A stretch of 32,000 nt of DNA, from the NCBI GenBank assembly GCA_016699265.1, contig CP064967.1:60001-92000 (forward strand), read 5' to 3'. The stretch's first letter is position 1; every line of letters starts with the position of its first letter. The DNA is from Candidatus Saccharimonadota bacterium. GTDB taxonomy: Bacteria > Patescibacteriota > Microgenomatia > UBA1406 > GWC2-37-13. Of this stretch, positions 11,889 to 32,000 are shown piece after piece. Made by a program: the position numbers and the translations under genes. The notes under the pieces were generated by a model. The model ran no database searches. It had not been told where the DNA came from and worked only from the letters and a program-made list of their open reading frames with translations.

Positions 11889-12635
11889 ATGGCAGAAGGA
11901 CAAGAAACACCACGATTAGTAAAGCCAACAAAACATCCAGAACAGGTTGCGGGTTATGTTGCAAAAGGTGCTCCAGAAAAACTTGCTCGAGAAATTGTGG
12001 CAGATAAAATTATAGGTGGAAGGCGTGTAAAGAAGCTTGAGGAGTTAGCAATGGTAGATCCGCTAACCGGAGCTTTTAACAGACGATATTTTAATGAGGA
12101 ATTGCAGGACGCATTCAATCTTACGAGTCGAGAACAAAGTGATGGCATTAGGACGCAAATCGGAGTACTGATATTAGATCTCGATAGATTTAAAAGCGTA
12201 AATGATCGTTTTTCACATATGGAAGGGGACAGAGTTTTAAAATTATTTGCCGACAGCATTAAGGGTAAGATCCGAGAGGAAGATGTATTTGCGAGGCTTG
12301 GAGGGGAAGAGTTCGGACTCATAATTAGGGAGTCTCATAAACTAACGCCAGAGGATTTGGTTAAGATGGTCGATCGTTACAGGAAAACAATTGCGGAAAA
12401 AGTCATGACCGGCCATGTTGCCGGACCCAAAAACGAGTCTGTCACGACCAGTGTAGGTCTCGTTCTCTTTCCAAACGGTGCCCATATCGAGCGGCCTCAA
12501 GATCTCGTTCATTGTGCGGATCAAGCACTCTATCAAGCAAAAGCAAACGGAAGAAACCAAGTTGTGAAGTTTGAGGGAATTGACGATAACGGAACTCCTC
12601 AGTTTTCTAACGTCGAGGTATCTCCTAAGGGTTGA
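11889..12635 (+). CDS. Diguanylate cyclase, stand-alone GGDEF domain (GGEEF active site, RxxD I-site)
   Basis: [27 protein letters not shown] five residues before GGEEFG, and [16 protein letters not shown]. Confidence 0.9.
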
Positions 12636-13462
12636 CCAAGTTCCTGCGCTTTCAATACTCTACGCATTATTTTTCCACTTCTTGTTTTTGGTAACGATGT
12701 TACAAACTCGATCTCATCAGGCGTTGCGATTGGTCCGATCATCTCTCTTACTTTTTTCTTGAGCTCTGCCTTCAGTTCATCGGTTGGTTGCTGACCAACC
12801 TTAAGAATAATAAAGGCCTTGATCGACTCTCCTTTGACTTCGTGGGGTTTACCGATAACTGCCGCCTCGGCAACTGACGGATGAGCGACAAACGCACTTT
12901 CTAGTTCTGCAGAACCAAATCGGTAACCTGAAACCTTCAGAACATCATCATTTCTTCCGAGAATCCAAAAATATCCATCTTCATCGATTTTGGCAGTGTC
13001 TCCCGTGAAGTACACATTCGGAATCTCTTCCCAGTAAGATTTTCTATACTTTTCTTCGTTTTTATAGATATCCTTCATCATCGCTGGCCAAGGCTTTTTA
13101 ATTATTAAGAAGCCCTGTTTATTCCGTTCGACAGGTTGACCATCATGGTCTACAACGTCTAATTCAAGACCGGGGAAAGGCTTGAAGGCTGAGCCAGGTT
13201 TAAGCACAACTGATGGTAGTGGGGATAGAATGTGCATTCCCGTTTCGGTTTGCCACCAAGTATCCATTATCGGGCATCGTCCTCCTCCAATGACCCGATG
13301 ATACCATTTCCATGCCTCTGGGTTAATTGGTTCACCAACACTTCCCAAGATTTTTACATTTGAAAAATCAAATTTGTTTGGCCATTCTTCTCCATACTTC
13401 ATTAAAGCTCTGATTGCGGTAGGAGTCGTGTAAAACTTAGAAACTTTATATTTAGAAAGCAA
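12599..13462 (-). CDS. acs: Acetyl-CoA synthetase, C-terminal fragment of the same frameshifted gene
   Basis: [65 protein letters not shown]. The frame is open back to 13489, where it reads [14 protein letters not shown]. Confidence 0.85.
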
Positions 13463-14466
13463 AGACCACCATTTTCCAGGATCTGAAAGTCAGGCGGACC
13501 TTCATATATGAAGTTAGTTATTCCGTTAATAAGCGGAGCGTAGACTATGTAACTATGGCCTGTAATCCACCCTGGATCTGCGGTGCACCAATAAACATCT
13601 GTTGGTTGAAGATTGAAGATCCACTTAAGCGTTATATATATTCCAACCATATAACCTCCATGGCTGTGAACAATCCCTTTTGGTTTGCCGGTACTTCCCG
13701 ATGTGTAAAGAATAAAAAGGGGATCCTCTGCATCCATAATTTCGGTAGAACAAATGCTATCCTGTTTGGCGAGCACATCATCCCACCAGAGATCTCGTCC
13801 CTCAACCATTTCAACGGGATTACCGGTTCTTTTCACGATAATCATTTTTTGTACTGAAGGACAGTCTTTTACTGCATTATCCACCGTTTTTTTAGTGTCG
13901 ATGAGCTTCTCTCTAAAATGATATCCATCTGCTGTAATAACGACCTTCGACTCTGCTTCGGTAACTCGATTTTTCATTGCGTCTGTCGAGAATCCTGAGT
14001 ACACAACCGTATGAACGGCTCCAATCTTAGCGCATGCAAGCATACTGATTGTCTGCTCCGGAAGTCTTGGAAGATAGATGCTGACTCGATCTCCTTTTTT
14101 AATTCCGAGCGTTTTCAAGGCATTTGCGAGTTTGCAGACTTCATCGTTGAGTTGTTGATATGTAAATGTTCGCACGCCTCCATCCTGACCCTCCCAGACG
14201 AGCGCCATCTTATCCTTGGTCGCTGTCTTCAAATGCCTATCGAGTGCATTATTCACGATGTTGCACTTTGCTCCTTTAAACCAGTGGGCATATGGATACT
14301 GCCAGTCAAGAACTGTGTCCCACGGCTTGAACCAACTCAGTTCCTTAGCGATGTTTTCCCAGAAGGCCTCAGGTTGAGCTACAGACTCTGCATATAGTTT
14401 TTCGTAGTCTTTCACGTATGAAGATTCGACTAAGTCCGGAGAGGGTTTAATAGCAGTTTCGTCCAT
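13402..14466 (-). CDS. acs: Acetyl-CoA synthetase (AMP-forming), N-terminal fragment of a frameshifted gene
   Basis: [50 protein letters not shown]. Homology ends at YEGPPDF, after which the frame reads nonsense up to the stop. Confidence 0.85.
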
Positions 14467-17696: not shown

Positions 17697-17966
17697 GTGT
17701 CAAATAAACTCTACGTAGGAAATCTTCTCTATGAAGTTACCGAGGATCAGCTTCGCACATACTTCGAGAAGGTTGGCCCCGTGGTTTCTACAAGCATCAT
17801 TCGTTTCAAGGACTCGGGTAGATCAAAAGGATTTGGTTTTGTCGAGATGGAGACGGAAGAAGGAGCTCAACAAGGTTTAGAGCTCAATGGCCAGGATTTT
17901 GAGGGAAGAAGACTCATCGTCTCCGAAGCACGCCCGCCGAAAGTAAACACATTCGATGATAACTAG
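17697..17966 (+). CDS. RRM-type RNA-binding protein
   Basis: RNP2 KLYVGNL and RNP1 KGFGFVEM. GTG start preceded by a strong GGAGGTG Shine-Dalgarno sequence at ~17681-17687. Confidence 0.9.
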   Translation: MSNKLYVGNLLYEVTEDQLRTYFEKVGPVVSTSIIRFKDSGRSKGFGFVEMETEEGAQQGLELNGQDFEGRRLIVSEARPPKVNTFDDN

Positions 17967-18048
17967 TAGCGATCGTCGCTTTTGATACAAGCTCTGTCGC
18001 AAATGGTAGGGTTTTGTATAATACGTTGTAAGTCCGCGAAGTTTTTAT

Positions 18049-18081
18049 TTTGTATTTTGAAATTTGTATTGAATTTGTATT
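18049..18081. repeat. Three direct TTTGTATT repeats (18049, 18063, 18074) in the leuS upstream region
   Basis: Read directly from the sequence. The last two copies form an 11-bp tandem, AATTTGTATTG/AATTTGTATTT. Confidence 0.6.
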
Positions 18082-18124
18082 TTTTAAAAATTGAATAAAA
18101 AAAATAAAAAATTCAAATTACCAT

Positions 18125-20401
18125 ATGAAGAAGTATATTCCCAGCGAAATTGAAAAAAAGTGGCAGGAGAAGTGGCGTAAGGAAAAAACCTTTAGCCCTA
18201 ATCTTGATACCGCAAAAAAGCCCTTCTACAGCCTCATGATGTTTCCTTACCCATCTGCAGAAGGTCTTCATGTGGGAAACATGTATGCATTTACTGGAAG
18301 CGATATCTTCTCTCGACTCAAGAGATTACAAGGTTTTGATGTATTTGAACCGATGGGGCTCGATGGTTTCGGGATTCATAGCGAGAACTATGCGATGAAG
18401 GTGAATAAACACCCTATGGATCTTTCTAAGGTCTCGGAGGAGAGATTTTATAAACAACTCGAATCCATTGGCAATGCATTTGATTGGGAACGAACGGTCG
18501 AAACCTATAAGCCTGAGTACTACAGGTGGACGCAGTGGATCTTCTTACAGATGTTTAAGCAAAAACTTGCGTACAAAAAAAAGGCTGAGGTAAATTGGTG
18601 TCCTTCCTGCAAAACGGTCTTAGCAGATGAGCAGGTGATTTCTGGGAAGTGTGAGCGGTGTTCGTCAGAGGTTGGCAAGAAGATGCTAGAGCAGTGGTTC
18701 TTTAGAATTACTGACTATGCGGACAGATTGCTTAAAAACCTTGACGGCCTAGATTGGTCTGAGAAAGTTAAGACGGCCCAACGTAACTGGATAGGAAAAA
18801 GTGAAGGAATGATTATTGATTTTGGAGGGATTGAGGTCTTTACTACAAAACCCGAGACTATTGATGGCGCAACGTTTTTAGTGCTAGCTCCTGAACATGA
18901 AAAAGTTGCAAAACTCACAACTCAAGAACAATCAACTCAGGTCAAGGAATACATTGAGATGGCCAAAAAACGCTCAGAGTTTGAGAGAAGCAATCTCAAG
19001 GAAAAGACAGGCGTATTTACAGGGTCGTATGCAGAGAATCCAGTGACAAAGAAACAGATTCCTGTCTGGATCGCTGACTATGTGCTGGTAGGATATGGTA
19101 CTGGTGCAATCATGGCTGTTCCGGATGGTGATGATAGGGATAGGGAGTTTGCCGAAAAATTCAAGTTACCAATTGAGAGCACAAGTTACGAAGCTAAACC
19201 GGAGGGGGTAAAGAGAGTCAATTACCATCTCAGAGATTGGTTAATTTCTCGTCAGCGCTACTGGGGACCACCGATCCCAATGATCTACTGCGATTCGTGC
19301 GGAACTGTCCCCGTGCCTGAAAAGGATTTACCTGTTGTTTTGCCGTACGTTGAGAACTTTCGCCCTACGGGTACGGGCGTATCTCCTTTAGCATCTAACG
19401 AAGAGTTTTATAAGGTAAACTGCCCTACCTGTGGTAAAGAAGCTCGTCGAGAAACCGATGTTTCGGATACATTTTTAGATTCTGCTTGGTATTTCCTAAG
19501 GTACCTTTCCACAGATGAAACGAAGCAGCCATGGAGCTCAGAGCGACTCAAAAACTGGATGCCAGTAAATACCTATATCGGTGGAGCAGAGCACTCAGTT
19601 CTACACCTTTTATACAGCAGATTCCTCAGTATGGTATTTAAAGATATGGGATTGATATCTCATTTTGAAGAGCCATTCACCCAATTTAGAGCACACGGTT
19701 TGATTATTTCCGAAGGAGCCAAAATGAGTAAATCGAAAGGTAATGTGATCAATCCTGACGATTTTATTCGGGACTATGGCGCAGATACACTACGCGTCTA
19801 CCTTATGTTTCTCGGCCCCTATGATCAGGGTGGAGATTTTCGTGAACAGGCAATAGTCGGTCCTTATAACTTCTTAAAGCGTATCTGGGATCTGCAGAAA
19901 AAAGTTGATGGCTCGACTCAGGAAGGGCTGGGGAATGAAGATAAACTATGGCTTAATAAAACATTGAAAAAGGTCGTGGATGACGTATTAGAGCTTAAAT
20001 TTAATACCGCAATTGCAACTCTCATGGAATGGCTAAACTTTTTATCTAAAAAGGAAAAGATTGCCGTCTCTGAGTACAAATTATTACTCATTCTCCTTGC
20101 TCCTTTCGCCCCACATATAACTGAGGAGATTTGGGAAATATTAGGAGAAAAATTATCCATCCATTTTCAAATGCTTCCATCTGTAGATGAAAACTCAATG
20201 GTTCAGAAGTATTTACGAATCCCTATTCAGGTAAATGGAAAGGTACGGGCCGTACTTCAGGTCTCAAATTCTGAGCTCGAAAAAGATAAAATTGTCAAAA
20301 AAGCACTATTAGAGGGCTCTGTGACAAGGCATATTGAAGGCAAGGCATATGAGATTATCTACCTTGAGGGAAAGGTGCTCAATTTCGTACTTTCTTCATA
20401 A
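18125..20401 (+). CDS. leuS: Leucyl-tRNA synthetase
   Basis: PYPSAEGLHVGN (HIGH region), CP1 editing motifs (TTKPETIDGATF, GTGAIMAVPDGDDRD), KMSKSKGN, 758 aa. Confidence 0.97.
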   Translation: MKKYIPSEIEKKWQEKWRKEKTFSPNLDTAKKPFYSLMMFPYPSAEGLHVGNMYAFTGSDIFSRLKRLQGFDVFEPMGLDGFGIHSENYAMKVNKHPMDLSKVSEERFYKQLESIGNAFDWERTVETYKPEYYRWTQWIFLQMFKQKLAYKKKAEVNWCPSCKTVLADEQVISGKCERCSSEVGKKMLEQWFFRITDYADRLLKNLDGLDWSEKVKTAQRNWIGKSEGMIIDFGGIEVFTTKPETIDGATFLVLAPEHEKVAKLTTQEQSTQVKEYIEMAKKRSEFERSNLKEKTGVFTGSYAENPVTKKQIPVWIADYVLVGYGTGAIMAVPDGDDRDREFAEKFKLPIESTSYEAKPEGVKRVNYHLRDWLISRQRYWGPPIPMIYCDSCGTVPVPEKDLPVVLPYVENFRPTGTGVSPLASNEEFYKVNCPTCGKEARRETDVSDTFLDSAWYFLRYLSTDETKQPWSSERLKNWMPVNTYIGGAEHSVLHLLYSRFLSMVFKDMGLISHFEEPFTQFRAHGLIISEGAKMSKSKGNVINPDDFIRDYGADTLRVYLMFLGPYDQGGDFREQAIVGPYNFLKRIWDLQKKVDGSTQEGLGNEDKLWLNKTLKKVVDDVLELKFNTAIATLMEWLNFLSKKEKIAVSEYKLLLILLAPFAPHITEEIWEILGEKLSIHFQMLPSVDENSMVQKYLRIPIQVNGKVRAVLQVSNSELEKDKIVKKALLEGSVTRHIEGKAYEIIYLEGKVLNFVLSS

Positions 20402-20537
20402 ACTATTAGATCTGGCTTGTTCTGGCAATCTCAATTAAAAACAAATTAATTGAACAAAAGTCGATAATTTTCTATCGAAGTGCATGTCGGCCAAGATTAC
20501 GTTTAGCAAAAGATAAGAAAATAATTGAGTATTTATT

Positions 20538-20546
20538 TGGTACAAT
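20538..20546 (+). promoter_or_regulatory. Extended -10 element TGgTACAAT upstream of tRNA-Gln
   Basis: The hexamer ends 11 nt before tRNA position 1. It is the same TGnTACAAT form seen upstream of secE. Confidence 0.45.
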
Positions 20547-20557
20547 GACGAAGATAT

Positions 20558-20631
20558 TGCCCGGTCGTCTAATGGCAGGACAGCAGATTCTGGATCTGCT
20601 TATCGGGGTTCGAGTCCCTGCTGGGCAGCCA
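20558..20631 (+). tRNA. tRNA-Gln (anticodon CUG), CCA encoded
   Basis: Folded by hand. Acceptor TGCCCGG/CTGGGCA has a U1-A72 pair and one G.U pair. D stem is GTC/GAC. Anticodon stem is GCAGA/TCTGC with loop TTCTGGA. T arm is CGGGG-TTCGAGT-CCCTG. Discriminator is G, then CCA. Confidence 0.85.
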
Positions 20632-21160
20632 TTCGACTCTTCAGTTCTCAGTTGTCTAATGCAATCTCAATGTGGGGAGGTTGATTCCGACTGAAGGATT
20701 GAGGATCTCCCTTATGGCAGCTCGCCCCTAATCATTTACGACAGATATACAGCCGTTCTGTGACTTCTTAGATATCCTTCGTGTATTCAAGCTTTAGGGC
20801 TCGGAAAAGATGTTGGCCTTTTAGCTAATTGATCTATTTAGCATGCTATCGATTTGTCTGATGATCCTGCGCATTGATGATTCGGACTATGTATTAGCCA
20901 AGTACGGACAAAACTCTGTTTTCTAATAGAATGAGTGATTTTAAAGCGAAGCCTTCGTATCTATTAAAAATAGAGCTCTCTTCATAATGCATACAGGAGA
21001 TATATCAACCAATTCATATCCCTTATTGTGAGACGTCGAATTTGAGTATATATACAGTTATATTCTGTCAATAAAGTCTAAAGAGCAATAATAAAAGATG
21101 TAAAATCTTTAACAATGCATACTTATAGTATATATATGTTAAATCCTCATCTTTTCAGGT

Positions 21161-21188
21161 TTCAAATTTAATTTTGTACGTGTATACT
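21161..21188 (+). promoter_or_regulatory. Candidate promoter TTCAAA-16 nt-TATACT, ending 7 nt before the ATG at 21196
   Basis: Hexamers read from the sequence, with no Shine-Dalgarno sequence. The background is AT-rich, so a chance match is possible. Confidence 0.35.
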
Positions 21189-21195
21189 GATCGTC

Positions 21196-22479
21196 ATGAA
21201 GCCTGTACTTACAACCTTAAAGAACGGTTTAAAGGTCTGTCTCATAGACACGAACTCTTTTCCAAGTCTGACCACGATACTTCTCGTAGGCGCAGGCTCT
21301 AGGTATGAAAATGCAAAGAATAATGGCATTGCCCACTTCTTTGAGCATATGGCATTTAAGGGATCCAAGAACTTTCCGGATTCATTCACGATCTCTTCGA
21401 CTATCGAGGGTTTAGGGGGAGTGTTTAACGCCTTCACCTCAAAAGACCATACCGGCTACTGGATTAAAGCAACGAACGATCATTTCGAGACAGTCTTAGC
21501 TGTGCTCTCAGATATGATCATGAACTCATTTCTTCTTGAGGATGAAATAAATCGAGAAAAAGGTGTAATTGTGGAGGAAATTAACATGTATGAAGATACT
21601 CCTAGGTGGAAGAGTGGAGATTTATTCGAAGAGCTTATGTATAAAGGGAGTTCTTTGGGGATGGACATAGCGGGCACAAGAGATACCGTAACCAACTTCA
21701 ACAGGAAGACCTTTACCGACTACATGGATGAGCTTTATCACCCGAATAACGCTGTTTTGGTCGTGGCAGGGGGATTTGGAAAGGGCAAGGCAGACTACAT
21801 TAAGAAAATTGAAGAGCGGTTCGGAGGTTGGGAAAGCAAGAAGGTTAAAGGCACATACGGAGTTTTTAAGAAGATTCAGACGAGCCCACAAATACTTATT
21901 CATTCTAAAAAAACCGAGCAAACTCATTTTTGTTTAGGCTTTCACAGCTACAATATCGATGATAAAAGGAAGTATCCACTAGCTCTTCTGTCAACAATTC
22001 TGGGTGGTGGAATGTCCTCTCGTCTTTTCATGCAGGTGCGAGAACGAAGAGGGCTGTGCTACTACATCTCAACCGGTCGTACAAGTTATAAGGATGTTGG
22101 AAATTTCGTAACCTCTGCGGGAGTGACGAATAATCTAGAAAAAACAAAGGAAGCAATTAGAGTTACTCTTGAGGAGCATAAAAAGACAACAATGGGAGAT
22201 ATTACGGACGTAGAAATTAAAAGAGCTAAAGACCTAATAAAGGGAAGAACCATACTGTCTATGGAGGACTCTCAGAACGTTTCATTATATTTTGGCTTGG
22301 AAATGCTTCTGCAAAATAAATCCACCACGCCTGAGGAGATGATAGAGACAGTACAGAAAGTGACCAAAGACGAGATTCTAAGCGTGGCTAAGGATGTGTT
22401 TAACCGAAACAATATTAACCTTTCGTTGATTGGTCCTTTTAAAGAGGGAGATATCACGGCTGAGGACCTCCAGATTTAA
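21196..22479 (+). CDS. M16 (pitrilysin/insulinase) family zinc peptidase
   Basis: Inverted zinc motif HFFEH (HxxEH) followed by MAFKGS, then downstream EE..NM.ED. ~427 aa, typical of the family. Confidence 0.9.
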   Translation: MKPVLTTLKNGLKVCLIDTNSFPSLTTILLVGAGSRYENAKNNGIAHFFEHMAFKGSKNFPDSFTISSTIEGLGGVFNAFTSKDHTGYWIKATNDHFETVLAVLSDMIMNSFLLEDEINREKGVIVEEINMYEDTPRWKSGDLFEELMYKGSSLGMDIAGTRDTVTNFNRKTFTDYMDELYHPNNAVLVVAGGFGKGKADYIKKIEERFGGWESKKVKGTYGVFKKIQTSPQILIHSKKTEQTHFCLGFHSYNIDDKRKYPLALLSTILGGGMSSRLFMQVRERRGLCYYISTGRTSYKDVGNFVTSAGVTNNLEKTKEAIRVTLEEHKKTTMGDITDVEIKRAKDLIKGRTILSMEDSQNVSLYFGLEMLLQNKSTTPEEMIETVQKVTKDEILSVAKDVFNRNNINLSLIGPFKEGDITAEDLQI

Positions 22480-22529
22480 TCCTCCTACGCAAACCCACAT
22501 ACCAGCAAACAGGGCTACAGCGAGCAAGG

Positions 22530-22558
22530 TTGACAGGCTAATCCTTAACCCATATGAT
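22530..22558 (+). promoter_or_regulatory. Near-consensus sigma70-type promoter TTGACA-17 nt-TATGAT for the prepilin peptidase gene
   Basis: -35 at 22530-22535 and -10 at 22553-22558. The ATG at 22567 is only 8 nt after the -10, with no Shine-Dalgarno sequence, so a leaderless mRNA is predicted. Confidence 0.55.
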
Positions 22559-22566
22559 TATCTACA

Positions 22567-23328
22567 ATGATTCTGAGCTTCTTATTTATTCTCGGTCTAG
22601 CTGTGGGCTCGTTTTTAAATGTACTTATTGATAGGCTACCAAACGACCAAGGTCTCCTTGGACGATCCTACTGCGATTACTGTAAAAAAACACTACAGCC
22701 ACAGGACCTTATTCCTGTTTTCTCGTACGCTTTTCTTCGAGGAAGATGTAGATACTGTCAAAAAAGACTCCAGATTCAATACCCTTTAATAGAGTTGTTG
22801 ACTGGAGTGGTATTTATGCTAACGTGGTTATCATTCTCACAGGGAGGTCTTGGATACCAAATTTATACGATCGTCTTAATTTCTATTTTGATAGCAATGT
22901 TCTTTAGTGATCTTAAGTATCAAATTCTTCCCGATGAGGAGCAACTTGCTTTATTTATAGTAGGTTTAGCATATCTAATTGCTACAAACGTGCCTATACC
23001 ACAGATTGCAGAGCGTTTCGTACTTAGTTTTGTAGCTATGATGCCCCTTCTTTTGTTATTTCTAGCTACGAAAGGAAGGGGAATGGGATTTGGCGACGTA
23101 AAACTATTGTTTATATTTGGATTCCTCTTTGAACTACAAGGTGCCTTCATAATTTTGTATGTGGCATTTATAACTGGAGGCTTTTTTGGTCTTGTAGCTA
23201 TTTTGTTGCGTAAAACTAAGATGAAAAGTAAGATAGCCTTTGGGCCATTTCTTATTTTAGGTGCTATTTTATATCTTTTTTATACTAAGTACTTTATAAC
23301 AGAGTTCAATACTATATTGGGCATATAA
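22567..23328 (+). CDS. pilD: Type IV prepilin leader peptidase (A24 family)
   Basis: GSFLNVLIDRLP, the Cys pairs CDYC..CRYC, YPLIELLTG, GMGFGDVKL (catalytic Asp context), and a polytopic membrane profile. Confidence 0.9.
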   Translation: MILSFLFILGLAVGSFLNVLIDRLPNDQGLLGRSYCDYCKKTLQPQDLIPVFSYAFLRGRCRYCQKRLQIQYPLIELLTGVVFMLTWLSFSQGGLGYQIYTIVLISILIAMFFSDLKYQILPDEEQLALFIVGLAYLIATNVPIPQIAERFVLSFVAMMPLLLLFLATKGRGMGFGDVKLLFIFGFLFELQGAFIILYVAFITGGFFGLVAILLRKTKMKSKIAFGPFLILGAILYLFYTKYFITEFNTILGI

Positions 23329-23855
23329 AATACGTTCATAACTCTTCATAAAATTCTAGATTGCCATTTGATCAACCGGTGCATAGATTTCTGAAGCTAT
23401 TTATATTATTAATATAATTGTACAAATACTCCAATATGAAAGGTTGTATTATAGAATATTTACTATATATAAATGATTGATAAAAGAAATATGTATTTAT
23501 GCTATCTGCGATTTTGTAGTTCTTCTCTGAAATAAATAAGAACCTTTTTGGGTCTTCGTAAAAGAAATATATCTTCCTCTATCGAGTCATAAAAAAAACT
23601 AATAAGTTCTTACTTTGAAGAGTTAATTCTCGATTAAAGATTCAACTTGATTATTGATAAAAGAAGAGAAAAATATTGTCAAAATTATTAAATACTATTT
23701 GCGTAAAAATATCCTTAAGAAAATCGAATAAAATCCTTCTTTAAGGACCAACAAAGTTTATTCAATTTTCTATTCTAAAAAACATCATAAAAAAGAAAAA
23801 ATATACTGATCAAAATTTGTTAACAAATAGCATTTTTGGTTATTAATCTGTATAT

Positions 23856-23877
23856 TCGTACATCTTTCGTACATCTT
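23856..23877. repeat. Perfect 11-bp tandem direct repeat TCGTACATCTT x2
   Basis: Read directly from the sequence. It lies in the AT-rich spacer ~270 bp upstream of the giant gene. Confidence 0.7.
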
Positions 23878-24032
23878 TAAATATCCAGGAAATATACTAA
23901 CTCCAAATTATCAATGATGCAGTTTGATATAGAAGCTTAATAATGAGAGTTGCTGATCTTATTGAGTAACTATAAAATGCTTTACAGAGCTTTGGGGCTT
24001 TACATAGACTCATATAATTGAGAAAAGTGGAA

Positions 24033-24062
24033 ATCTATGCATTGCTTACTCAATGCATAGAT
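24033..24062. promoter_or_regulatory. Perfect inverted repeat ATCTATGCATTG-(6 nt)-CAATGCATAGAT, candidate operator
   Basis: 12-bp arms read on both strands. It lies 21 nt upstream of the -35 hexamer of the giant-gene promoter. Confidence 0.45.
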
Positions 24063-24082
24063 ATTTGAAGCTAAAATGCCTC

Positions 24083-24112
24083 TTGACAAGCGTTGCGTAG
24101 ATTTGTTCTAAT
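24083..24112 (+). promoter_or_regulatory. Promoter of the HTH-TM-repeat gene: TTGACA-18 nt-TGtTCTAAT
   Basis: Consensus -35 at 24083-24088, and a 5/6 -10 at 24107-24112 with a TGn extension. An alternative reading is TTGACA-20 nt-TAATAA (24109-24114), a MerR-like long spacer. The ATG is at 24143. Confidence 0.55.
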
Positions 24113-24142
24113 AAATCTTAGATCAATTATTCGCATAATTAC

Positions 24143-26209
24143 ATGAGCACGAGCCCTACATTAAAACCTAAAAAAAACCTAGTATCTATTGGTAAAGCTG
24201 CAGAGATTTTAGGGGTGTCAATAGACGCCATAAGAAGATGGGATAAAGCAGGGGCAATTCACACGTATAGAGAAGAAGGAAAAGCGAGAAGATTTTCATT
24301 AGATGAGTTGAGGGAAATGAAGGCCTCAAAACCACTCAGCATTTCCGAAGCAGCGATCAAATTAGGTGTATCAGCATCCACACTAAGAAGGATTGAAAAG
24401 AAGGGTCTATTAGTTCCTCAAAGAAATTCTATAGGTGAACGAGAATATTCACGAAATTCAATCAAGACTTATATGGCCAGAGAGGGCCAACAAAACAAGG
24501 GCGTGCCTCTTAGTACGAACGATGCTATCGAAACTGAAATTGACCAAATTCCTGTGCCTGCAAGGGTATTAATCGATAATTCTGTATATGCTTCAGAGAA
24601 GGCTAGAGAGTTTCCCGTATATGAGCCAAGAGCGGCAGGGATGTTTGCTTCTGAATCTGAATCTGCAAGGAACGAAGTAGAGCCGAGAATCGCAGATGCT
24701 GCCATCCGAAAAATCAGCAGGACACAGTATAAATTTAACGCTCGCAACATATTCATGGCTACCTCAATGCTTGGTTTCATAGCAATGCTTGTGTTCGGAG
24801 CTATAGGCGCTCAGACAGTATTCAACTCCGTAACTAAGGACAGAGCTGTTGCAGTTAGACTTAATTTTGAAAAAGTAGATAAACAGCCACAGGTTCTTGC
24901 GGCCAGCACAGATAAAGGTCTATTAAGCAGAATTAATGATTCACTATCTCAGTTACTAGCTCGGTTGCCTTGGAGTTCATCAGCAAATAAGAACGTATCC
25001 ATTGTGGCTCAGGTTAAGAAAGATGCTCAAGTAAATATTGCAGACGTACAAAAAGCCCTTGCATCAAGTGCTATTTCTGAAAAAGAAACGATCTATTTTG
25101 CCATACCCGCGGTCTTTCAAAAAAATATTACAGCCCCTAATGTAATATATAGTGTCACTGCTGGAACAGGAGTTACTATTACTGGAGATACTCAGAACCC
25201 AGTCATAAACGCCGTTTCTTCTACAGTTGCTTCTGGAGTATCGTCACTACAAGGTTCAACGGGATCGGTAGTGTTAACTGCAGGATCAGGCATTTCTATC
25301 GACGGTCTTACCATCAGCTCCTCCATCTCTTCATCTACAGAACAAACGTTTAATACGATTTCTGTAAGTGGACAATCGGATGTGGTAGCCGATAGCTCAA
25401 CAGACACCCTCACATTAACGGCTGGTACTGGAATAGTTATAACGACAGATGCATCGGGCGACATTGTAACGATTACAAATTCAGGTAGTTCAAGTGCCTC
25501 AGGTTTTATAGATAATGGTACGGTCGTGAGTTTAACAACCTCAACCGACAATGTAACGCTTGGTTCTACTACGGATCTTGCAAAACTTGGGATTGATGGA
25601 GAGGCGGATGAGATTCAACTTCTCGTTCAAGGAAACTCAACACAGACAACAAGTCTCATAGTTGCTGAAAATTCATCTGGGACAGATGTATATACAGTAA
25701 GTAATACTGGAGACGTAGTTCAAACCGGTTCCTTAACCTTCTCATCAGTCGGAACTGATATAACAACGGGATCTGGGGAGGATTTAACAGTTGTAGCAAA
25801 TGGGATAGGAATTATTAATCTAAATGACAATGTCGTTATCACTGGAACCACAGATCTTCAAGGTAACGTTTCAAACTCAACTGGAACTCTGACTTTTGCA
25901 GACAACGTCTCTGTAACGGGTAGCACAACCCTTGGAGATAACACCAGTGACACCATAACCTTTAATGCAGGTGTATCAGGTGCAGGTATATCATTTGCCT
26001 CCTCAACATTTGGAACATGTACCGCCCTTGAGACAGTCGGTGGAGTCTTGACCTGCGGATCTGATGCTGGTGGATCAGACTCAGGTTGGATTGATGGTGG
26101 ATCAAACGTCTATCTTATTACCTCCTCTGACAATGTAGGTATTGGAACAACAGCACCTGGGGCCAAGGAAAACTACAGATCGCTGGTGATACGGATGAAA
26201 TTCAACTAG
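24143..26209 (+). CDS. Bitopic membrane protein: 2x MerR/excisionase-like HTH, one TM helix, then a beta-strand-repeat ectodomain (first segment of a much longer reading frame)
   Basis: HTH-like units at aa 13-58 and 64-110, and a TM helix IFMATSMLGFIAMLVFGAIGAQTVF (aa 203-227, nt 24749-24823). The rest is S/T/G/N-rich with LTAG[TS]G.. repeats. The stop at 26207 is reached only after a frame slip at the A4 run 26169-26172. Confidence 0.85.
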   Translation: MSTSPTLKPKKNLVSIGKAAEILGVSIDAIRRWDKAGAIHTYREEGKARRFSLDELREMKASKPLSISEAAIKLGVSASTLRRIEKKGLLVPQRNSIGEREYSRNSIKTYMAREGQQNKGVPLSTNDAIETEIDQIPVPARVLIDNSVYASEKAREFPVYEPRAAGMFASESESARNEVEPRIADAAIRKISRTQYKFNARNIFMATSMLGFIAMLVFGAIGAQTVFNSVTKDRAVAVRLNFEKVDKQPQVLAASTDKGLLSRINDSLSQLLARLPWSSSANKNVSIVAQVKKDAQVNIADVQKALASSAISEKETIYFAIPAVFQKNITAPNVIYSVTAGTGVTITGDTQNPVINAVSSTVASGVSSLQGSTGSVVLTAGSGISIDGLTISSSISSSTEQTFNTISVSGQSDVVADSSTDTLTLTAGTGIVITTDASGDIVTITNSGSSSASGFIDNGTVVSLTTSTDNVTLGSTTDLAKLGIDGEADEIQLLVQGNSTQTTSLIVAENSSGTDVYTVSNTGDVVQTGSLTFSSVGTDITTGSGEDLTVVANGIGIINLNDNVVITGTTDLQGNVSNSTGTLTFADNVSVTGSTTLGDNTSDTITFNAGVSGAGISFASSTFGTCTALETVGGVLTCGSDAGGSDSGWIDGGSNVYLITSSDNVGIGTTAPGAKENYRSLVIRMKFN

Positions 26210-26576
26210 TTGTAACCGGCAATGCTACTCAAACCTCAAATCTTCTCACTCTCGAACAGTTTGGTGGTACGGATGTATTCACCGTTACTAATGCAGGTAA
26301 TGTAACTATCTCTGGTTCAGTCTCTGCTGGATCACTAACTGTTGGAGGGGACACCATCACAGACTTTACAGGTACAGGACTTAGTGCAGCTGGTAACACA
26401 CTTGTCACCACACTTGGTACCTCAATCTCAAACGGGGAGCTTGATAACTCTACAATCACCTTTGCTGGTGACTTAGGCTCCTCAACAACAGCATTAGGTG
26501 CTACAAGAACAATCTCAGGTGGTACAAACGGTATTGACACCTCAGACAACAATGCAGTGTACCTTAACCATTAACT

Positions 26577-27248
26577 TTGACTCTGCAGAGGTTGGAACCA
26601 CCACCTTTGGTTCAGGGTCTGCTTTTGCCTGGACCTTTGACTCAACTGCTGGAACCGATACCTCAATTGCCTTTGGATCTAACTCTCAGATCTTCACCTC
26701 AGGTACTGCTTCATTCTCAGGAAGACTTGGTAACAACCACTCCTACCGTTTCACTTGATGTTGTTGGTTCAGGTCTATTCTCCCAGAACCTTACAGTCAC
26801 TGGATCAGTCTCTGCTGGATCACTAACTGTTGGAGGGGACACCATCACAGACTTTACAGGTACAGGACTTAGTGCAGCTGGTAACACACTTGTCACCACC
26901 CTTGGTACCTCAATCTCAAACGGGGAGCTTGATAACTCTACAATCACCTTTGCTGGTGACTTAGGCTCCTCAACAACAGCATTAGGTGCTACAAGAACAA
27001 TCTCAGGTGGTACAAACGGTATTGACACCTCAGACAACAATGCCGGTACCTTAACCATTAACTTTGACTCTACAGAGGTTGGAACCACCACCTTTGGTTC
27101 AGGATCTGCTTTTGCCTGGACCTTTGACTCAACTGCTGGAACCGATACCTCAATTGCCTTTGGATCTAACTCTCAGATCTTTACCTCAGGTACTGCTTCA
27201 TTCTCAGGAAGACATTGGTACAACCGCTCCTCTGGAGTCTTCAACTAA
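26577..27248 (+). pseudogene. Repeat-protein fragment (first ~55 codons off-frame, remainder sense B module)
   Basis: The sense part reads PTVSLDVVGSGLFSQNLTVTGSVSAGSLTVGGDTITDF...TASFSGR. Confidence 0.55.
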
Positions 27249-27794
27249 CCTTACCGTTAACGGAACACAACCCTTGAGATAACACCAGTGACTTTAATGC
27301 AGGTGTATCAGGTCAGGTATATCATTTGCCTCTGGGGAACATACCGCCCTTGAGACAGTCGGTGGAGTCTTGACCTGCGGATCTGATGTGGTGGATCAGA
27401 CTCAGGTTGGATTGATGGTGGATCAAACGTTCTTATTACCTCCTCTGACAATGTAGGTATTGGAACAACAGCACCTGGGGCCAAGTTGATGTTGTTGGTT
27501 CAGGTCTATTCTCCCAGAACCTTACAGTCACTGGTTCAGTCTCTGCTGGATCACTAACTGTTGGAGGGGACACCATCACAGACTTTACAGGTACAGGACT
27601 TAGTGCAGCTGGTAACACACTTGTCACCACCCTTGGTACCTCAATCTCAAACGGGGAGCTTGATAACTCTACAATCACCTTTGCTGGTGACTTAGGCTCC
27701 TCAACAACAGCATTAGGTGCTACAAGAACAATCTCAGGTGGTACAAACGGTATTGACACCTCAGACAACAATGCCGGTACCTTAACCATTAACT

Positions 27795-28532
27795 TTGACT
27801 CTACAGAGGTTGGAACCACCACCTTTGGTTCAGGGTCTGCTTTTGCCTGGACCTTTGACTCAACTGCTGGAACCGATACCTCAATTGCCTTTGGATCTAA
27901 CTCTCAGATCTTTACCTCAGGGACTGCTTCCTTCTCAGGAAGACTTGGTATTGGTACAACCGCTCCAACCGTTTCACTTGATGTTGTTGGTTCAGGTCTA
28001 TTCTCCCAGAACCTTACAGTCACTGGTTCTCTCTGCTGGATCACTAACTGTTGGAGGAGACACCATCACAGACTTTAAGGTACAGGACTTAGTGCAGCTG
28101 GTAACACACTTGTCACCACATTTGGTACCTCAATCTCAAACGGAGCTTGATAACTCTACAATCACCTTTGCTGGTGACTTAGGCTCCTCAACAACAGCAT
28201 TAGGCGCTACAAGAACAATCTCAGGTGGTACAAACGGTATTGACACCTCAGACAACAATGCCGGTACCTTAACCATTAACTTTGACTCTACAGAGGTTGG
28301 AACCACCACCTTTGGTTCAGGATCTGCTTTGCCTGGACCTTTGACTCAACTGCTGGAACCGATACCTCAATTGCCTTTGGATCTAACTCTCAGATCTTTA
28401 CCTCAGGTACTGCTTCATTCTCAGGAAGACTTGGTATTGGTACAACTGCTCCTACCGTTTCACTTGATGTTGTTGGAGCTGGAGTCTTCTCAACTAACCT
28501 TACCGTTAACGGGAACACAACCCTTGAGATAA
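27795..28532 (+). pseudogene. Repeat-protein fragment that alternates between sense and off-frame text
   Basis: The sense islands SAGSLTVGGDTITDF and ELDNSTITFAGDLGSS..TFGSGSA are separated by short indels at ~28029, 28077, 28143 and 28328. Confidence 0.45.
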
Positions 28533-28638
28533 CACCAGTGACACCATAACCTTTAATGCAGGTGTATCAGGTGCAGGTATATCATTTGCCTCCTCAACAT
28601 TTGGAACATGTACCGCCCTTGAGACAGTCGGTGGAGTC

Positions 28639-29367
28639 TTGACCTGCGGATCTGATGCTGGTGGATCAGACTCAGGTTGGATTGATGGTGGATCAAACGT
28701 CTATCTTATTACCTCCTCTGACAATGTAGGTATTGGAACAACAGCACCTGGGGCCAAGCTTGATGTTGTTGGTTCAGGTCTATTCTCCCAGAACCTTACA
28801 GTCACTGGATCAGTCTCTGCTGGATCACTAACTGTTGGAGGGGACACCATCACAGACTTTACAGGTACAGGACTTAGTGCAGCTGGTAACACACTTGTCA
28901 CCACCCTTGGTACCTCAATCTCAAACGGGGAGCTTGATAACTCTACAATCACCTTTGCTGGTGACTTAGGCTCCTCAACAACAGCATTAGGTGCTACAAG
29001 AACAATCTCAGGTGGTACAAACGGTATTGACACCTCAGACAACAATGCCGGTACCTTAACCATTAACTTTGACTCTACAGAGGTTGGAACCACCACCTTT
29101 GGTTCAGGGTCTGCTTTTGCCTGGACCTTTGACTCAACTGCTGGAACCGATACCTCAATTGCCTTTGGATCTAACTCTCAGATCTTTACCTCAGGTACTG
29201 CTTCATTCTCAGGAAGACTTGGTATTGGTACAACCGCTCCAACCGTTTCACTTGATGTTGTTGGTTCAGGTCTATTCTCCCAGAACCTTACAGTCACTGG
29301 ATCAGTCTCTGCTGGATCACTAACTGTTGGAGGACACCATCACAGACTTTACAGGTACAGGACTTAG
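28639..29367 (+). pseudogene. Repeat-protein fragment, longest clean stretch (end of C module + B + start of next B)
   Basis: (L)TCGSDAGGSDSGWIDGGSNVYLITSSDNVGIGTTAPGAKLDVVGSGLF... stays in the sense frame until the 2-nt loss at ~29333. Confidence 0.6.
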
Positions 29368-30111
29368 TGCAGCTGGTAACACACTTGTAACCACCCTTGG
29401 TACCTCAATCTCAAACGGGGAGCTTGATAACTCTACAATCACCTTTGCTGGTGACTTAGGCTCCTCAACAACAGCATTAGGTGCTACAAGAACAATCTCA
29501 GGTGGTACAAACGGTATTGACACCTCAGACAACAATGCCGGTACTTAACCATTAACTTTGACTCTACAGAGGTTGGAACCACCACCTTTGGTTCAGGATC
29601 TGCTTTTGCCTGGACCTTTGACTCAACTGCTGGAACCGATACCTCAATTGCCTTTGGATCTAACTCTCAGATCTTTACCTCAGGTACTGCTTCATTCTCA
29701 GGAAGACTTGGTATTGGTACAACCGCTCCTACCGTTTCACTTGATGTTGTTGGAGCTGGAGTCTTCTCAACTAACCTTACCGTTAACGGGAACACAACCC
29801 TTGGAGATAACACCAGTGACACCATAACCTTTAATGCAGGTGTATCAGGTGCAGGTATATCATTGCCTCCTCAACATTTGGAACATGTACCGCCCTTGAG
29901 ACAGTCGGTGGAGTCTTGACCTGCGGATCTGATGCTGGTGGATCAGACTCAGGTTGGATTGATGGTGGATCAAACGTCTATCTTATTACCTCCTCTGACA
30001 ATGTAGGTATTGGAACAACAGCACCTGGGGCCAAGCTTGATGTTGTTGGTTCAGGTCTATTCTCCCAGAACCTTACAGTCACTGGATCAGTCTCTGCTGG
30101 ATCACTAACTG

Positions 30112-31077
30112 TTGGAGGACACCATCACAGACTTTACAGGTACAGGACTTAGTGCAGCTGGTAACACACTTGTCACCACCCTTGGTACCTCAATCTCAAA
30201 CGGGGAGCTTGATAACTCTACAATCACCTTTGCTGGTGACTTAGGCTCCTCAACAACAGCATTAGGTGCTACAAGAACAATCTCAGGTGGTACAAACGGT
30301 ATTGACACCTCAGACAACAATGCCGGTACCTTAACCATTAACTTTGACTCTACAGAGGTTGGAACCACCACCTTTGGTTCAGGGTCTGCTTTTGCCTGGA
30401 CCTTTGACTCAACTGCTGGAACCGATACCTCAATTGCCTTTGGATCTAACTCTCAGATCTTTACCTCAGGGACCGCCTCATTCTCAGGAAGACTTGGTAT
30501 TGGTACAACCGCTCCTACCGTTTCACTTGATGTTGTTGGTTCAGGTCTATTCTCCCAGAACCTTACAGTCACTGGTTCAGTCTCTGCTGGATCACTAACT
30601 GTTGGAGGAGACACCATCACAGACTTTACAGGTACAGGACTTAGTGCAGCTGGTAACACACTTGTCACCACCCTTGGTACCTCAATCTCAAACGGGGAGC
30701 TTGATAACTCTACAATCACCTTTGCTGGTGACTTAGGCTCCTCAACAACAGCATTAGGCGCTACAAGAACAATCTCAGGTGGTACAAACGACAACAATGC
30801 CGGTACCTTAACCATTAACTTTGACTCTACAGAGGTTGGAACCACCACCTTGGTTCAGGATCTGCTTTTGCCTGGACCTTTGACTCAACTGCTGGAACCG
30901 ATACCTCAATTGCCTTTGGATCTAACTCTCAGATCTTTACCTCAGGTACTGCTTCATTCTCAGGAAGACTTGGTATTGGTACAACCGCTCCTACCGTTTC
31001 ACCTGGAGCTGGAGTCTTCTCAACTAACTCTTACCGTTAACGGGAACACAACCCTTGGAGATAACACACAGGTTTAA
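30112..31077 (+). pseudogene. Repeat-protein fragment (sense to ~30850, then off-frame)
   Basis: The B-module text runs twice. There is an in-frame 15-nt loss (GIDTS) at ~30790 and a frame slip at the T run ~30850. Confidence 0.55.
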
Positions 31078-32000
31078 TCAGGTGTATCAGGTGCAGGTGT
31101 TTCATTTGCCTCCTCAACATTTGGAACATGTACCGCCCTTGAGACAGTCGGTGGAGTCTTGACCTGCGGATCTGATGCTGGTGGATCAGACTCAGGTTGG
31201 ATTGATGGTGGATCAAACGTCTATCTTATTACCTCCTCTGACAATGTGGTATTGGAACAACAGCACCTGGGGCCAAGCTTGATGTTGTTGGTTCAGGTCT
31301 ATTCTCCCAGAACCTTACAGTCACTGGATCAGTCTCTGCTGGATCACTAACTGTTGGAGGGGACACCATCACAGACTTTACAGGTACAGGACTTAGTGCA
31401 GCTGGTAACACACTTGTCACCACCCTTGGTACCTCAATCTCAAACGGGGAGCTTGATAACTCTACAATCACCTTTGCTGGTGACTTAGGCTCCTCAACAA
31501 CAGCATTAGGTGCTACAAGAACAATCTCAGGTGGTACAAACGGTATTGACACCTCAGACAACAATGCCGGTACCTTAACCATTAACTTTGACTCTACAGA
31601 GGTTGGAACCACCACCTTTGGTTCAGGGTCTGCTTTTGCCTGGACCTTTGACTCAACTGCTGGAACCGATACCTCAATTGCCTTTGGATCTAACTCTCAG
31701 ATCTTTACCTCAGGTACTGCTTCATTCTCAGGAAGACTTGGTATTGGTACAACTCCCTACCGTTTCACTTGATGTTGTTGGAGCTGGTCTCTTCTCCCAG
31801 AACCTCTCAACTAACAGTCTCTTGGAGATAACTGTTGGAGGACACCAACCAGACTTTAAGGCAGGACTTAGTGCAGCTGGAACATTTGGCCTCCTCAACA
31901 TTGGATAACATAATCACCTTTGACAGTCGGTGACTTGACATCTGATGAACAATTGGACAAAATGCAGGTGTATAACCAACTTCAAGTTCAGACAATGCTG

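Follow-up and report, generated by a model that had tools for sequence, protein, structure and literature searches.

Transcription regulators that combine a DNA-binding domain with at least one transmembrane region have been defined as transmembrane transcription regulators (Demey et al. 2023, PMC10269533); they are widespread, and single-pass forms are the commonest among them (PMC10269533). In a census of 50,302 such proteins, DNA-binding heads of the MerR (386), MerR_1 (350), and HTH_17 (151) types represent 0.3-0.8% each, and the census text and the supplements consulted do not name Patescibacteria (PMC10269533). Here we describe a gene starting at position 24143 of a 32,000-nt stretch of DNA from Candidatus Saccharimonadota bacterium (assembly GCA_016699265.1, contig CP064967.1, positions 60,001 to 92,000; hereafter, the window). 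Its product appears to have both defining features of the class, a recognised DNA-binding domain, formed by two helix-turn-helix (HTH) units, and a predicted transmembrane region, which are followed by a long repeat-rich ectodomain. The gene belongs to a large, Patescibacteria-wide, clade-specific, and uncharacterised family. We consider it on balance probable that the protein is a self-regulating transmembrane regulator, in which a cytoplasmic fused-HTH head binds the promoter of its own gene, a transmembrane helix serves as the anchor, and an adhesin-like surface fibre is exposed outside.

In ToxR, TcpP, and CadC, as predicted for the window protein, a cytoplasmic DNA-binding domain is connected by one transmembrane helix to an extracytoplasmic domain. 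The window protein differs from them in its tandem MerR/Xis-type head and in having, instead of a small periplasmic sensor, a putative repeat fibre that may reach about 5,000 amino acids (aa) in the family. An earlier note on this DNA, made from the sequence, described the layout as ToxR/CadC-style. The bitopic arrangement of a single polypeptide with its N-terminus inside agrees with this description, whereas the family assignment does not: no Pfam match to Trans_reg_C was found even at E<=1, and thus the protein, having no such OmpR-type domain, does not belong to the ToxR/CadC family. In RsgI and RodZ, too, a regulatory or HTH domain at the cytoplasmic N-terminus is followed by one transmembrane helix and an extracellular binding domain, so that surface binding is linked to events in the cytoplasm; however, RsgI binds a sigma factor and the XRE-type HTH of RodZ binds MreB, and neither domain type is present in the window protein. 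Giant membrane-anchored proteins are a known theme of the candidate phyla radiation (CPR) and are thought to mediate host attachment, but the reports on them mention no N-terminal DNA-binding head (PMC8080830, PMC13059738). The literature on CPR bacteria yielded no description of an HTH-transmembrane-fibre protein. In this sense the remark of the earlier note that it knew of no characterised example of the architecture is supported, although the protein is not a singleton and transmembrane regulators with MerR/HTH_17-type heads had already been counted (PMC10269533).

Profile searches and structure prediction agree on the nature of the head. It scores above the Pfam cut-offs for MerR (E 4.1e-18), MerR_1 (4.5e-16), and HTH_17 (7.7e-11), in two stretches each, and unit 1 also exceeds the cut-off of the NCBIfam model TIGR01764 'excise' (31.8 bits, cut-off 28.8). 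The AlphaFold model, built from a 20-sequence alignment, contains two winged HTHs with a predicted local distance difference test score (pLDDT) >90 over aa 11-115. A Foldseek comparison of the head with PDB retrieved solely DNA-binding MerR-type domains, namely NmlR, the RacA DNA-binding domain, mycobacteriophage Xis, and BldC, with TM-scores of 0.8-0.84 relative to the small targets Xis and BldC, and the close structural matches are all DNA complexes. Two consecutive MerR/excisionase-type units, as originally proposed for the N-terminal part, are therefore recovered both as significant profile matches and as a fold of the aa 1-110 region. The 33% identity between the units indicates an internal duplication. 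Several residues of the head are near-invariant across the family (I16, A19, L23-G24, S26, D28, R31-R32-W33, and others), and so are those of the recognition helix.

The canonical MerR family (MerR, SoxR, CueR, and NmlR) shares with the head the winged-HTH fold and the sequence signature. In canonical MerR systems the operator dyad lies inside a -35/-10 spacer of 19-20 bp; here one half-site, TGCGTAGAT, is present in the 18-20-nt spacer between the putative -35 and -10 elements, and the full dyad is located upstream of -35. The MerR_1 match covers only profile positions 2-44 of 69, aa 119-192 are modelled without a helix, and the dimerisation helix and effector domain are lacking; hence this is not a canonical MerR regulator. 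Whereas canonical members dimerise through a coiled coil, here two heads are joined in one chain that would be anchored in the membrane. The equivalog models SoxR, CueR, MerR, and ZntR were all far under their cut-offs in the NCBIfam scan of the window protein. BldC, Xis, and the RacA DNA-binding domain, the best structural matches, likewise consist of about 50 aa and lack an effector domain; binders of this type are small and soluble, whereas here the units are fused and tethered to a transmembrane helix and a giant ectodomain. The NCBIfam matches of HspR, SoxR, RacA, BldC, and 'fused homodimer' HspR type are sub-threshold, and by their models the protein falls outside the BldC (HTH_BldC, 17.9 bits vs cut-off 77), RacA (18.8 vs 170), HspR (NF047377, 25 vs 300), or RodZ families. 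Nor does the AlphaFold model contain, after the HTHs, a coiled coil like the C-terminal DivIVA-binding one of RacA. The 'fused homodimer' HspR, as the name of model NF047377 has it, provides a precedent for two MerR-type HTHs that, joined in one chain, behave as a pseudo-dimer at an inverted repeat; HspR differs from the window protein in being soluble and chaperone-linked.

The folded domain of about 115 aa and a linker of about 90 aa precede the sole transmembrane helix. The linker varies in length and sequence among family members and, having 14 D/E against 12 K/R, is not markedly acidic, in contrast to its first description. The single hydrophobic helix noted at aa 203-227 is recovered by AlphaFold as well as by hydropathy, and a Kyte-Doolittle scan found one transmembrane segment at the equivalent place in about 45 family loci; in about 50 of the 80 loci fetched, one such helix comes after the double HTH. 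The 688-aa protein has no signal peptide and, by inspection, its transmembrane segment has no prepilin-like G|F motif. Since five K/R are present within the 15 residues preceding the hydrophobic core, a signal peptide is absent, and the part beyond the helix is rich in S, T, and G, a type-II bitopic (N-in/C-out) topology, with a cytoplasmic head and an extracytoplasmic repeat part, may reasonably be inferred. Cys pairs recur in the ectodomain, and the ectodomains of relatives contain extracellular modules (see below). This N-in/C-out layout, which the earlier note had deduced, is kept as intact open reading frames (ORFs) in many independently assembled genomes.

Relatives were collected as tblastn-confirmed matches to the N-terminal query in species-representative genomes, 356 in total, of which 80 were listed and fetched (numbered loci, L). 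Almost all of these 80 are Patescibacteria, and the lineages represented include Woese-, Davies-, Chisholm-, and Andersenbacteria, Saccharibacteria, and Microgenomates. Exhaustive searching with HMMER recovered 220 clusters at E<=1e-30, among them proteins of 3,742, 4,430, 4,471, 4,863, and 5,145 aa, all with the profile match at the N-terminus. Complete ORFs are found at L013 (800 aa), L021 (1,912), L039 (2,492), L019 (2,538), L051 (2,698), and L045 (2,920), and the frame is open over at least 3,440 aa, up to the flank limit, at L010, L011, L026, and L038, over at least 1,988 aa at L005, and over at least 862 aa at L001. The domain order HTH, transmembrane helix, repeats is thus that of a large Patescibacteria family. 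L001 shows the same synteny as the window (tryptophanyl-tRNA synthetase, TrpRS / arginase-family protein / leucyl-tRNA synthetase, LeuRS / M16 / A24). Over aa 1-357, the identity of the L001 and L002 proteins with that of the window amounts to only about 40%.

A chimeric join of an HTH-transmembrane part with an unrelated repeat part, raised at the outset as a possible artefact, was ruled out by an independent metagenome contig, L081 (OBLX010000041.1), and by the many intact relatives. L081 is 99.78% identical to window positions 17887-26066 and contains the junction of HTH, transmembrane helix, and ectodomain, its protein being identical at 640/641 positions over aa 1-641. Of the first repeat, the stored stretch of L081 includes just 51 nt, which is where a short-read contig would be expected to break. 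Exact look-ups of the 688-aa ORF, the M16 peptidase, the repeat ORF, and the GenBank fragments revealed no contig extending the window; a pattern from the window end had no match in metagenome contigs, and the promoter pattern recovered L081.

Comparison of the relatives shows an almost invariant head combined with variable linkers, stalks, and tips, which indicates a common design of head, transmembrane helix, stalk of variable length, and binding tip. Short forms of about 316 aa (L008, L009, L017, L028, and L031) consist of the head, the transmembrane helix, a Pro/Thr-rich linker, and an SH3_3 domain; the 4,471-aa protein P0177 has the same head and SH3_3 at aa 4418-4469; L019 encodes Laminin_G_3 plus a C-terminal SH3_3; and P0242 has a sub-threshold H-type lectin match at its C-terminus. 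Stalks ranging from almost nothing to about 4,300 aa therefore connect one kind of head with one kind of tip, SH3_3, which suggests that stalk length is freely evolvable and represents an evolvable reach parameter. Long collagen-like Gly-X-Y runs (GPTGSTGNTGATG...) in the ectodomains of L004, L006, L035, and L052, located at the ends of the open ORFs, suggest trimeric stalks. The HTH pair itself behaves as a duplicable module, with four HTH units in P0002 (289 aa) and eight, that is four excisionase/MerR pairs, ahead of the single transmembrane helix in P0001 (623 aa).

The DNA upstream of the gene carries a candidate operator. The exact sequence TGCATAGAT occurs three times in the 32-kb window, each time in the intergenic region before the HTH gene. 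The inverted repeat listed in Table 1 spans 30 bp, with half-site centres 18 bp apart; it is nearly identical in L001 and L002, despite the low identity of their proteins to the window protein, and partly retained in L005 and L012, and one further half-site, at 24094-24102, is that of the promoter spacer mentioned above. The promoter-like block is conserved in L001, L002, and L005, and CTTGACA/TTGACAA is enriched 5' of family genes; a consensus scan did not call this promoter because its -10 hexamer is off-consensus. The distal copy of the motif lies 674 nt 5' of the proximal one, and L001 has a similar distal copy. The leader as a whole (23329-24142, between the A24 and HTH genes) is ORF-free, 814 nt long, and has 28% GC; its ends carry the copies, 674 nt apart, of a TGCATAGAT...GAAGCTA element. 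The 785-nt leader of L001 (9216-10000) has the same end elements and an unalignable interior. The 814-nt leader, which might act in looping or as an RNA, has no Rfam match, and its comparison with that of L001 showed no conserved small ORF.

In the family as a whole, 33/50 family genes vs 6/266 other genes of the same loci carry the 7-mer CTATGCA in the 220 nt that precede the start, and three of these six share their intergenic region with a family gene; a generic promoter feature was thus ruled out. The family consensus is (A)CCTATGCA-ttGGTTAACCaa-TGCATAGG(T), i.e. a palindrome CCTATGCA-N12-TGCATAGG. In a scan of about 740 kb of family loci, 17/23 matches to the strict palindrome fall within the 2% of sequence located upstream of family genes. 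In many or most relatives the palindrome is placed at -31 from the ATG; the window copy is at -107, upstream of -35. The half-site sequence is near-invariant, and complementarity between the two halves is often imperfect (TAAGCA...TGCATA). Since it is the sequence of the halves that is conserved, with no reliance on compensatory changes, and since the element shifts from one side of the promoter to the other, a protein-binding DNA site is favoured over an RNA hairpin, and the latter reading of the palindrome was set aside as less likely.

The same motif, in the form of either a palindrome or three direct repeats, is also found ahead of 12/23 soluble proteins whose HTH is related, and it therefore follows the HTH type rather than the ectodomain. 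At L055-L079 (e.g. L063 9850-10001, L069, and L076), patescibacterial genes whose products, about 416 aa long, begin with a related HTH have ATAACCtttGCCTATGCAatGGTTAT at their promoter, adjoining a TATAAT box. The palindrome is also found at the promoter of HTH-fused C5 methyltransferase-like genes, L068 containing the C5-methyltransferase motif GGFPCQAFS. At L054 (9860-9995) and L080 (9870-9998), three TGCATAG(A/T)TT copies lie ahead of genes for soluble HTH proteins about 250 aa in length, and at L080 the TGCATAG copies form direct repeats 20-21 nt apart, resembling the head-to-tail sites of BldC/Xis type. Proteins of the BldC/Xis type bind direct repeats head-to-tail, and direct TGCATAG repeats of this kind occur in the window, L054, and L080. 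The conservation of the TGCATAG palindrome makes DNA binding by the head likelier and points to self-regulation from the membrane.

The association of motif and HTH type also bears on two other explanations of the head. The HTH pair could be a structural tether that ties the nucleoid to the membrane at the fibre base in a RacA-like manner, or anchors the transmembrane helix against pull, with any transcriptional control being incidental. The fold, which matches that of architectural binders (Xis and BldC) as well as the DNA-binding domain of RacA, would agree with this possibility, as would the weak RacA model matches, the eight and four HTH units of P0001 and P0002, suited to multivalent DNA anchoring, and the almost complete invariance of the DNA-binding residues across phylum-level lineages. 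A tether, however, does not account for a motif that, in the roughly 740 kb scanned, is concentrated at the family's own promoters instead of being dispersed over the loci, and the RacA-type NCBIfam models score far under their cut-off; we regard it as unlikely. Alternatively, the HTH pair might be a protein-binding module as in RodZ, the protein an envelope or morphogenesis scaffold, and the motif a site of another regulator. The SH3_3 forms of about 316 aa, with HTH, transmembrane helix, Pro-Thr-rich linker, and small beta domain, do resemble RodZ-like proteins, and single-pass 'HTH_25,SH3_3' proteins are present in the census of transmembrane regulators (PMC10269533). This explanation is nevertheless highly improbable, given that the domain is of MerR/Xis type with DNA complexes as close structural matches, that Pfam scans of the window protein and its relatives found neither HTH_25 nor DUF4115 of RodZ, and that the motif tracks the HTH type over three unrelated architectures.

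The ectodomain following the transmembrane helix is rich in S (14%), T (14%), and G (11%), in accordance with its initial description as an S/T/G/N-rich repeat region. Its unique part contains a conserved 'APNVIYSVTAGTGVTI' motif and 'F.TISVSGQSDVVADSSTDTLTLTAGTGI' repeats. Further downstream, copies of a repeat of about 1.27 kb begin at five anchors (26015, 27337, 28606, 29883, and 31126), each copy being composed of two units of about 164 aa and a Cys-X14-Cys motif, and the copies are about 97-99% identical to each other; Tandem Repeats Finder reports a period of 487-492. The first copy starts within the intact ORF, so the downstream DNA is part of the same gene. The GenBank fragments IPH70_00535-00550 bear the same repeat unit, yet none of them matches the window at >=99%, and the array thus appears to run on past position 32000. 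The stalk repeat of the window, 'F.TISVSGQSDVVADSSTDTLTL.AGTGI.ITTDA', is common to about 336 proteins, mostly unannotated, one of which carries the T7 tail-fibre N-terminal domain (PF03906). In PHROG, the L005 orthologue matches the tail-fibre families phrog_9942 (4.9e-10) and phrog_18345 (2e-4), and a phage tblastn search with the window ectodomain gave one weak match, to a hypothetical protein. A prophage origin was ruled out by the housekeeping-type neighbours (TrpRS, arginase-family protein, LeuRS, tRNA-Gln, M16, and A24) and by the synteny with L001.

Past position 26209 no single reading frame continues, and the rest of the 24143-32000 region is spread over three frames. One base added in the run ...AAGGAAAAC... 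yields '...APGAKGKLQIAGDTDEIQLVVTGN...' / APGAKGKLQIAGDTDEIQLVV, which aligns with '...APGGKVQILGDADEIQLLVTGN...' of L001. L001 reads through the position of the window's stop, and L002 is also open across the equivalent region. About two dozen frame-breaking indels distinguish the repeat copies; most of these indels are private deletions of 1-2 nt and frequently affect short runs (e.g. GGGG to GG, TTTT to TTT). Near-identical repeats of about 1.27 kb can be spanned by long reads only, and short-read polishing fails inside them; for this reason we read the frameshifts as errors of the long-read assembly and hold it very probable that the broken frames do not reflect biology. Elsewhere in the window, loss of 1 nt in TTTC[C]AGAT near 13470-13480 divides the acetyl-CoA synthetase gene (12599-14466, - strand) into ORFs of 354 and 287 aa; restoring the base recovers the canonical PDFPDPGKWW motif, a sign that indel errors remain in the assembly. 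The source assembly is a single contig of 928,688 nt (protein accessions QQR63995-QQR64016), in which the pieces of the repeat region are annotated as separate hypothetical proteins, IPH70_00470 to IPH70_00550. As this case shows, genes of this kind are broken up in long-read metagenome-assembled genomes and appear as dozens of 'hypothetical proteins', which masks the architecture in GenBank.

It is, on the other hand, conceivable that the gene has truly decayed or is phase-variable here, so that only a 688-aa protein with HTH pair, transmembrane helix, and short ectodomain is made and the downstream repeats are dead. The sequence as given, with its stop at 26207 and some two dozen frame-breaking indels, some outside homopolymers and some 5-25 nt long, speaks for such decay. 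It is nonetheless an unlikely explanation: many substitutions would be expected in dead copies, yet they remain about 97-99% identical with largely private small deletions; acetyl-CoA synthetase, a conserved housekeeping-type gene, is broken likewise; the repeats, accessible to long reads only, defeat short-read polishing; and the frames are open in close relatives. The giant fibre that the earlier note obtained by joining the downstream frames is therefore upheld by the read-through in L001, the open frame of L005, and still longer relatives, whereas in the window itself the frame is broken at 26209.

The following scheme would accommodate these data. The protein would insert N-in, one transmembrane helix fixing the head to the membrane, and the two fused winged HTHs of MerR/Xis/BldC type would function as a single-chain pseudo-dimer. 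On the outer side, near-identical, presumably beta-rich repeats would build a stalk of several thousand residues; this stalk is taken to be an adhesin-like surface fibre because relatives end in a binding tip (SH3_3, ConA-like or lectin-like). The head would bind the TGCATAG-type palindrome or repeats at its own promoter, and the amount, possibly the state, of the membrane-inserted fibre protein would feed back on its own transcription. Repression seems likely where the site lies at -31, over the 5' untranslated region. As the head is translated first, action in cis during the synthesis of a transcript of more than 10 kb is conceivable, though speculative, and in cells of such size any locus would be near the membrane. 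Should the scheme hold, transmembrane transcription regulators would come to include a new type of head, the fused MerR/Xis pair, together with an ectodomain of extreme size. Few regulators are recognisable in CPR/Patescibacteria and their host-attachment machinery is largely unknown; the family and its predicted operator offer a concrete, testable link between the surface and gene control in this group. A bolder version, in which binding or tension at the tip (SH3_3/lectin) alters DNA binding at the membrane and the protein is a one-protein attachment-to-transcription mechanosensor across Patescibacteria, seems to us improbable; if true, it would suit ultra-small episymbiotic cells, in which every gene is within reach of the membrane.

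Several observations weigh against the proposed self-regulating membrane protein. The link between head and motif is one of co-occurrence, and a paralogous soluble HTH protein could be the actual binder of the motif. The enrichment statistics are only indicative, as the loci are phylogenetically related and do not constitute independent tests. The operator of the window, at -107 and 5' of -35, is placed unlike the majority, and in many loci the 3' arm overlaps a Shine-Dalgarno-like AGGT at the fixed -31 position, where the element may have a translational role in RNA. The labels 'fibre' and 'adhesin' are suggested by composition, repeats, and relatives: the ectodomain encoded in the window has no Pfam match, aa 301-688 of the window protein have no PHROG match, and an AlphaFold monomer model of aa 318-676, computed from an 18-sequence alignment, has a pLDDT of 44.7 with short strands and is unusable. 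The C-terminal end of the gene lies beyond the window, and if the frameshifts are real, the window copy makes merely the 688-aa protein.

Table 1. Coordinates of the regulator gene, its upstream elements, and adjacent peptidase genes (positions in the window; aa numbers refer to the intact ORF)
Feature	Position	Strand	Remarks
M16 (insulinase-type) peptidase	21196-22479	+	Pfam
A24 prepilin peptidase	22567-23328	+	Pfam
Distal motif copy TGCATAGATTTCTGAAGCTA	23380..23399	+	right after A24 gene; direct repeat, 90% identical
Perfect inverted repeat ATCTATGCATTG-N6-CAATGCATAGAT, candidate operator	24033..24062	.	member of family-wide palindrome
Promoter-like TTGACA (24083-24088), 18-20-nt spacer, TCTAAT/TAATAA	24083..24114	+	read from sequence
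Intact ORF	24143-26209	+	688 aa
HTH unit 1, excisionase/MerR-type winged HTH	aa 13-58 = 24179..24316	+	Pfam MerR aa 15-51, HTH_17 aa 14-62
HTH unit 2, MerR-type winged HTH	aa 64-110 = 24332..24472	+	Pfam MerR_1 aa 66-108
Cytoplasmic linker, predicted disordered, near-neutral	aa 111-197 = 24473..24733	+	pLDDT <50 for aa 119-192
Single transmembrane helix (predicted)	aa 198-231 = 24734..24835, hydrophobic core aa 203-227	+	AlphaFold helix, pLDDT about 80-86
Juxtamembrane and unique ectodomain part	aa 232-624 = 24836..26014	+	conserved in L001, L005, P0047
Higher-order repeat array, at least 4.7 copies of a ~1.27-kb (~423-aa) unit	26015..32000	+	runs off window
Frameshift site (run ...AAGGAAAAC..., about 26166-26174) and premature stop 26207-26209	26166..26209	+	

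The M16 and A24 peptidases reported directly upstream of the gene were both identified by Pfam, and the M16 protein of the window is QQR63995.1, labelled 'Candidatus Roizmanbacteria bacterium' in GenBank. They figure in the suggestion that the fibre, once engaged, sets off regulated proteolysis, for which M16 or A24 might be responsible, and that the HTH head is thereby released or activated, so that the protein would be a contact sensor or mechanosensor coupling attachment to a transcriptional programme. The layout permits such a device, since relatives have tip binding domains and the cytoplasmic linker is predicted to be disordered; both peptidases adjoin the gene here and in L001, L003, L027, and L035, with M16 alone in L005 (5 of about 50 loci). 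RsgI-type anti-sigma factors follow an analogous surface-to-cytoplasm logic. However, the peptidase synteny is restricted to a few close relatives in one sublineage, 14 other loci have an HTH_17 + PIN pair instead, and ORF clustering around 49 loci showed lineage-specific neighbours, none of them universal. A24 is a prepilin peptidase, and the transmembrane segment offers it no prepilin motif; neither a site-2 protease nor a cleavage motif was found; and with two HTHs per chain already present, signal-driven dimerisation is not needed for binding. Nothing was found that indicates contact sensing or regulated proteolysis, both envisaged in the earlier note, and we consider this mechanism, including the involvement of M16 or A24, very unlikely.

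The HTH_17 + PIN pair is divergent and consists of genes for an HTH_17-like protein of about 95 aa and a PIN-like protein of about 142 aa, located on the opposite strand about 150-900 nt upstream (L007, L008, L009, L011, L015, L017, L019, L022, L028, L029, L031, L033, L041, and L044). It looks like a toxin-antitoxin pair and is absent from the window. Small membrane proteins are encoded downstream of the family gene in 7-8 loci. Between LeuRS and M16 the window contains a tRNA-Gln gene (anticodon CTG; 20558-20631, + strand), its sole Rfam or ARAGORN match. Finally, a 248-aa protein with a GGDEF diguanylate cyclase domain (11889-12635, + strand; Pfam E 4e-37), encoded in a genome of about 0.93 Mb, hints at cyclic di-GMP signalling in the source organism.

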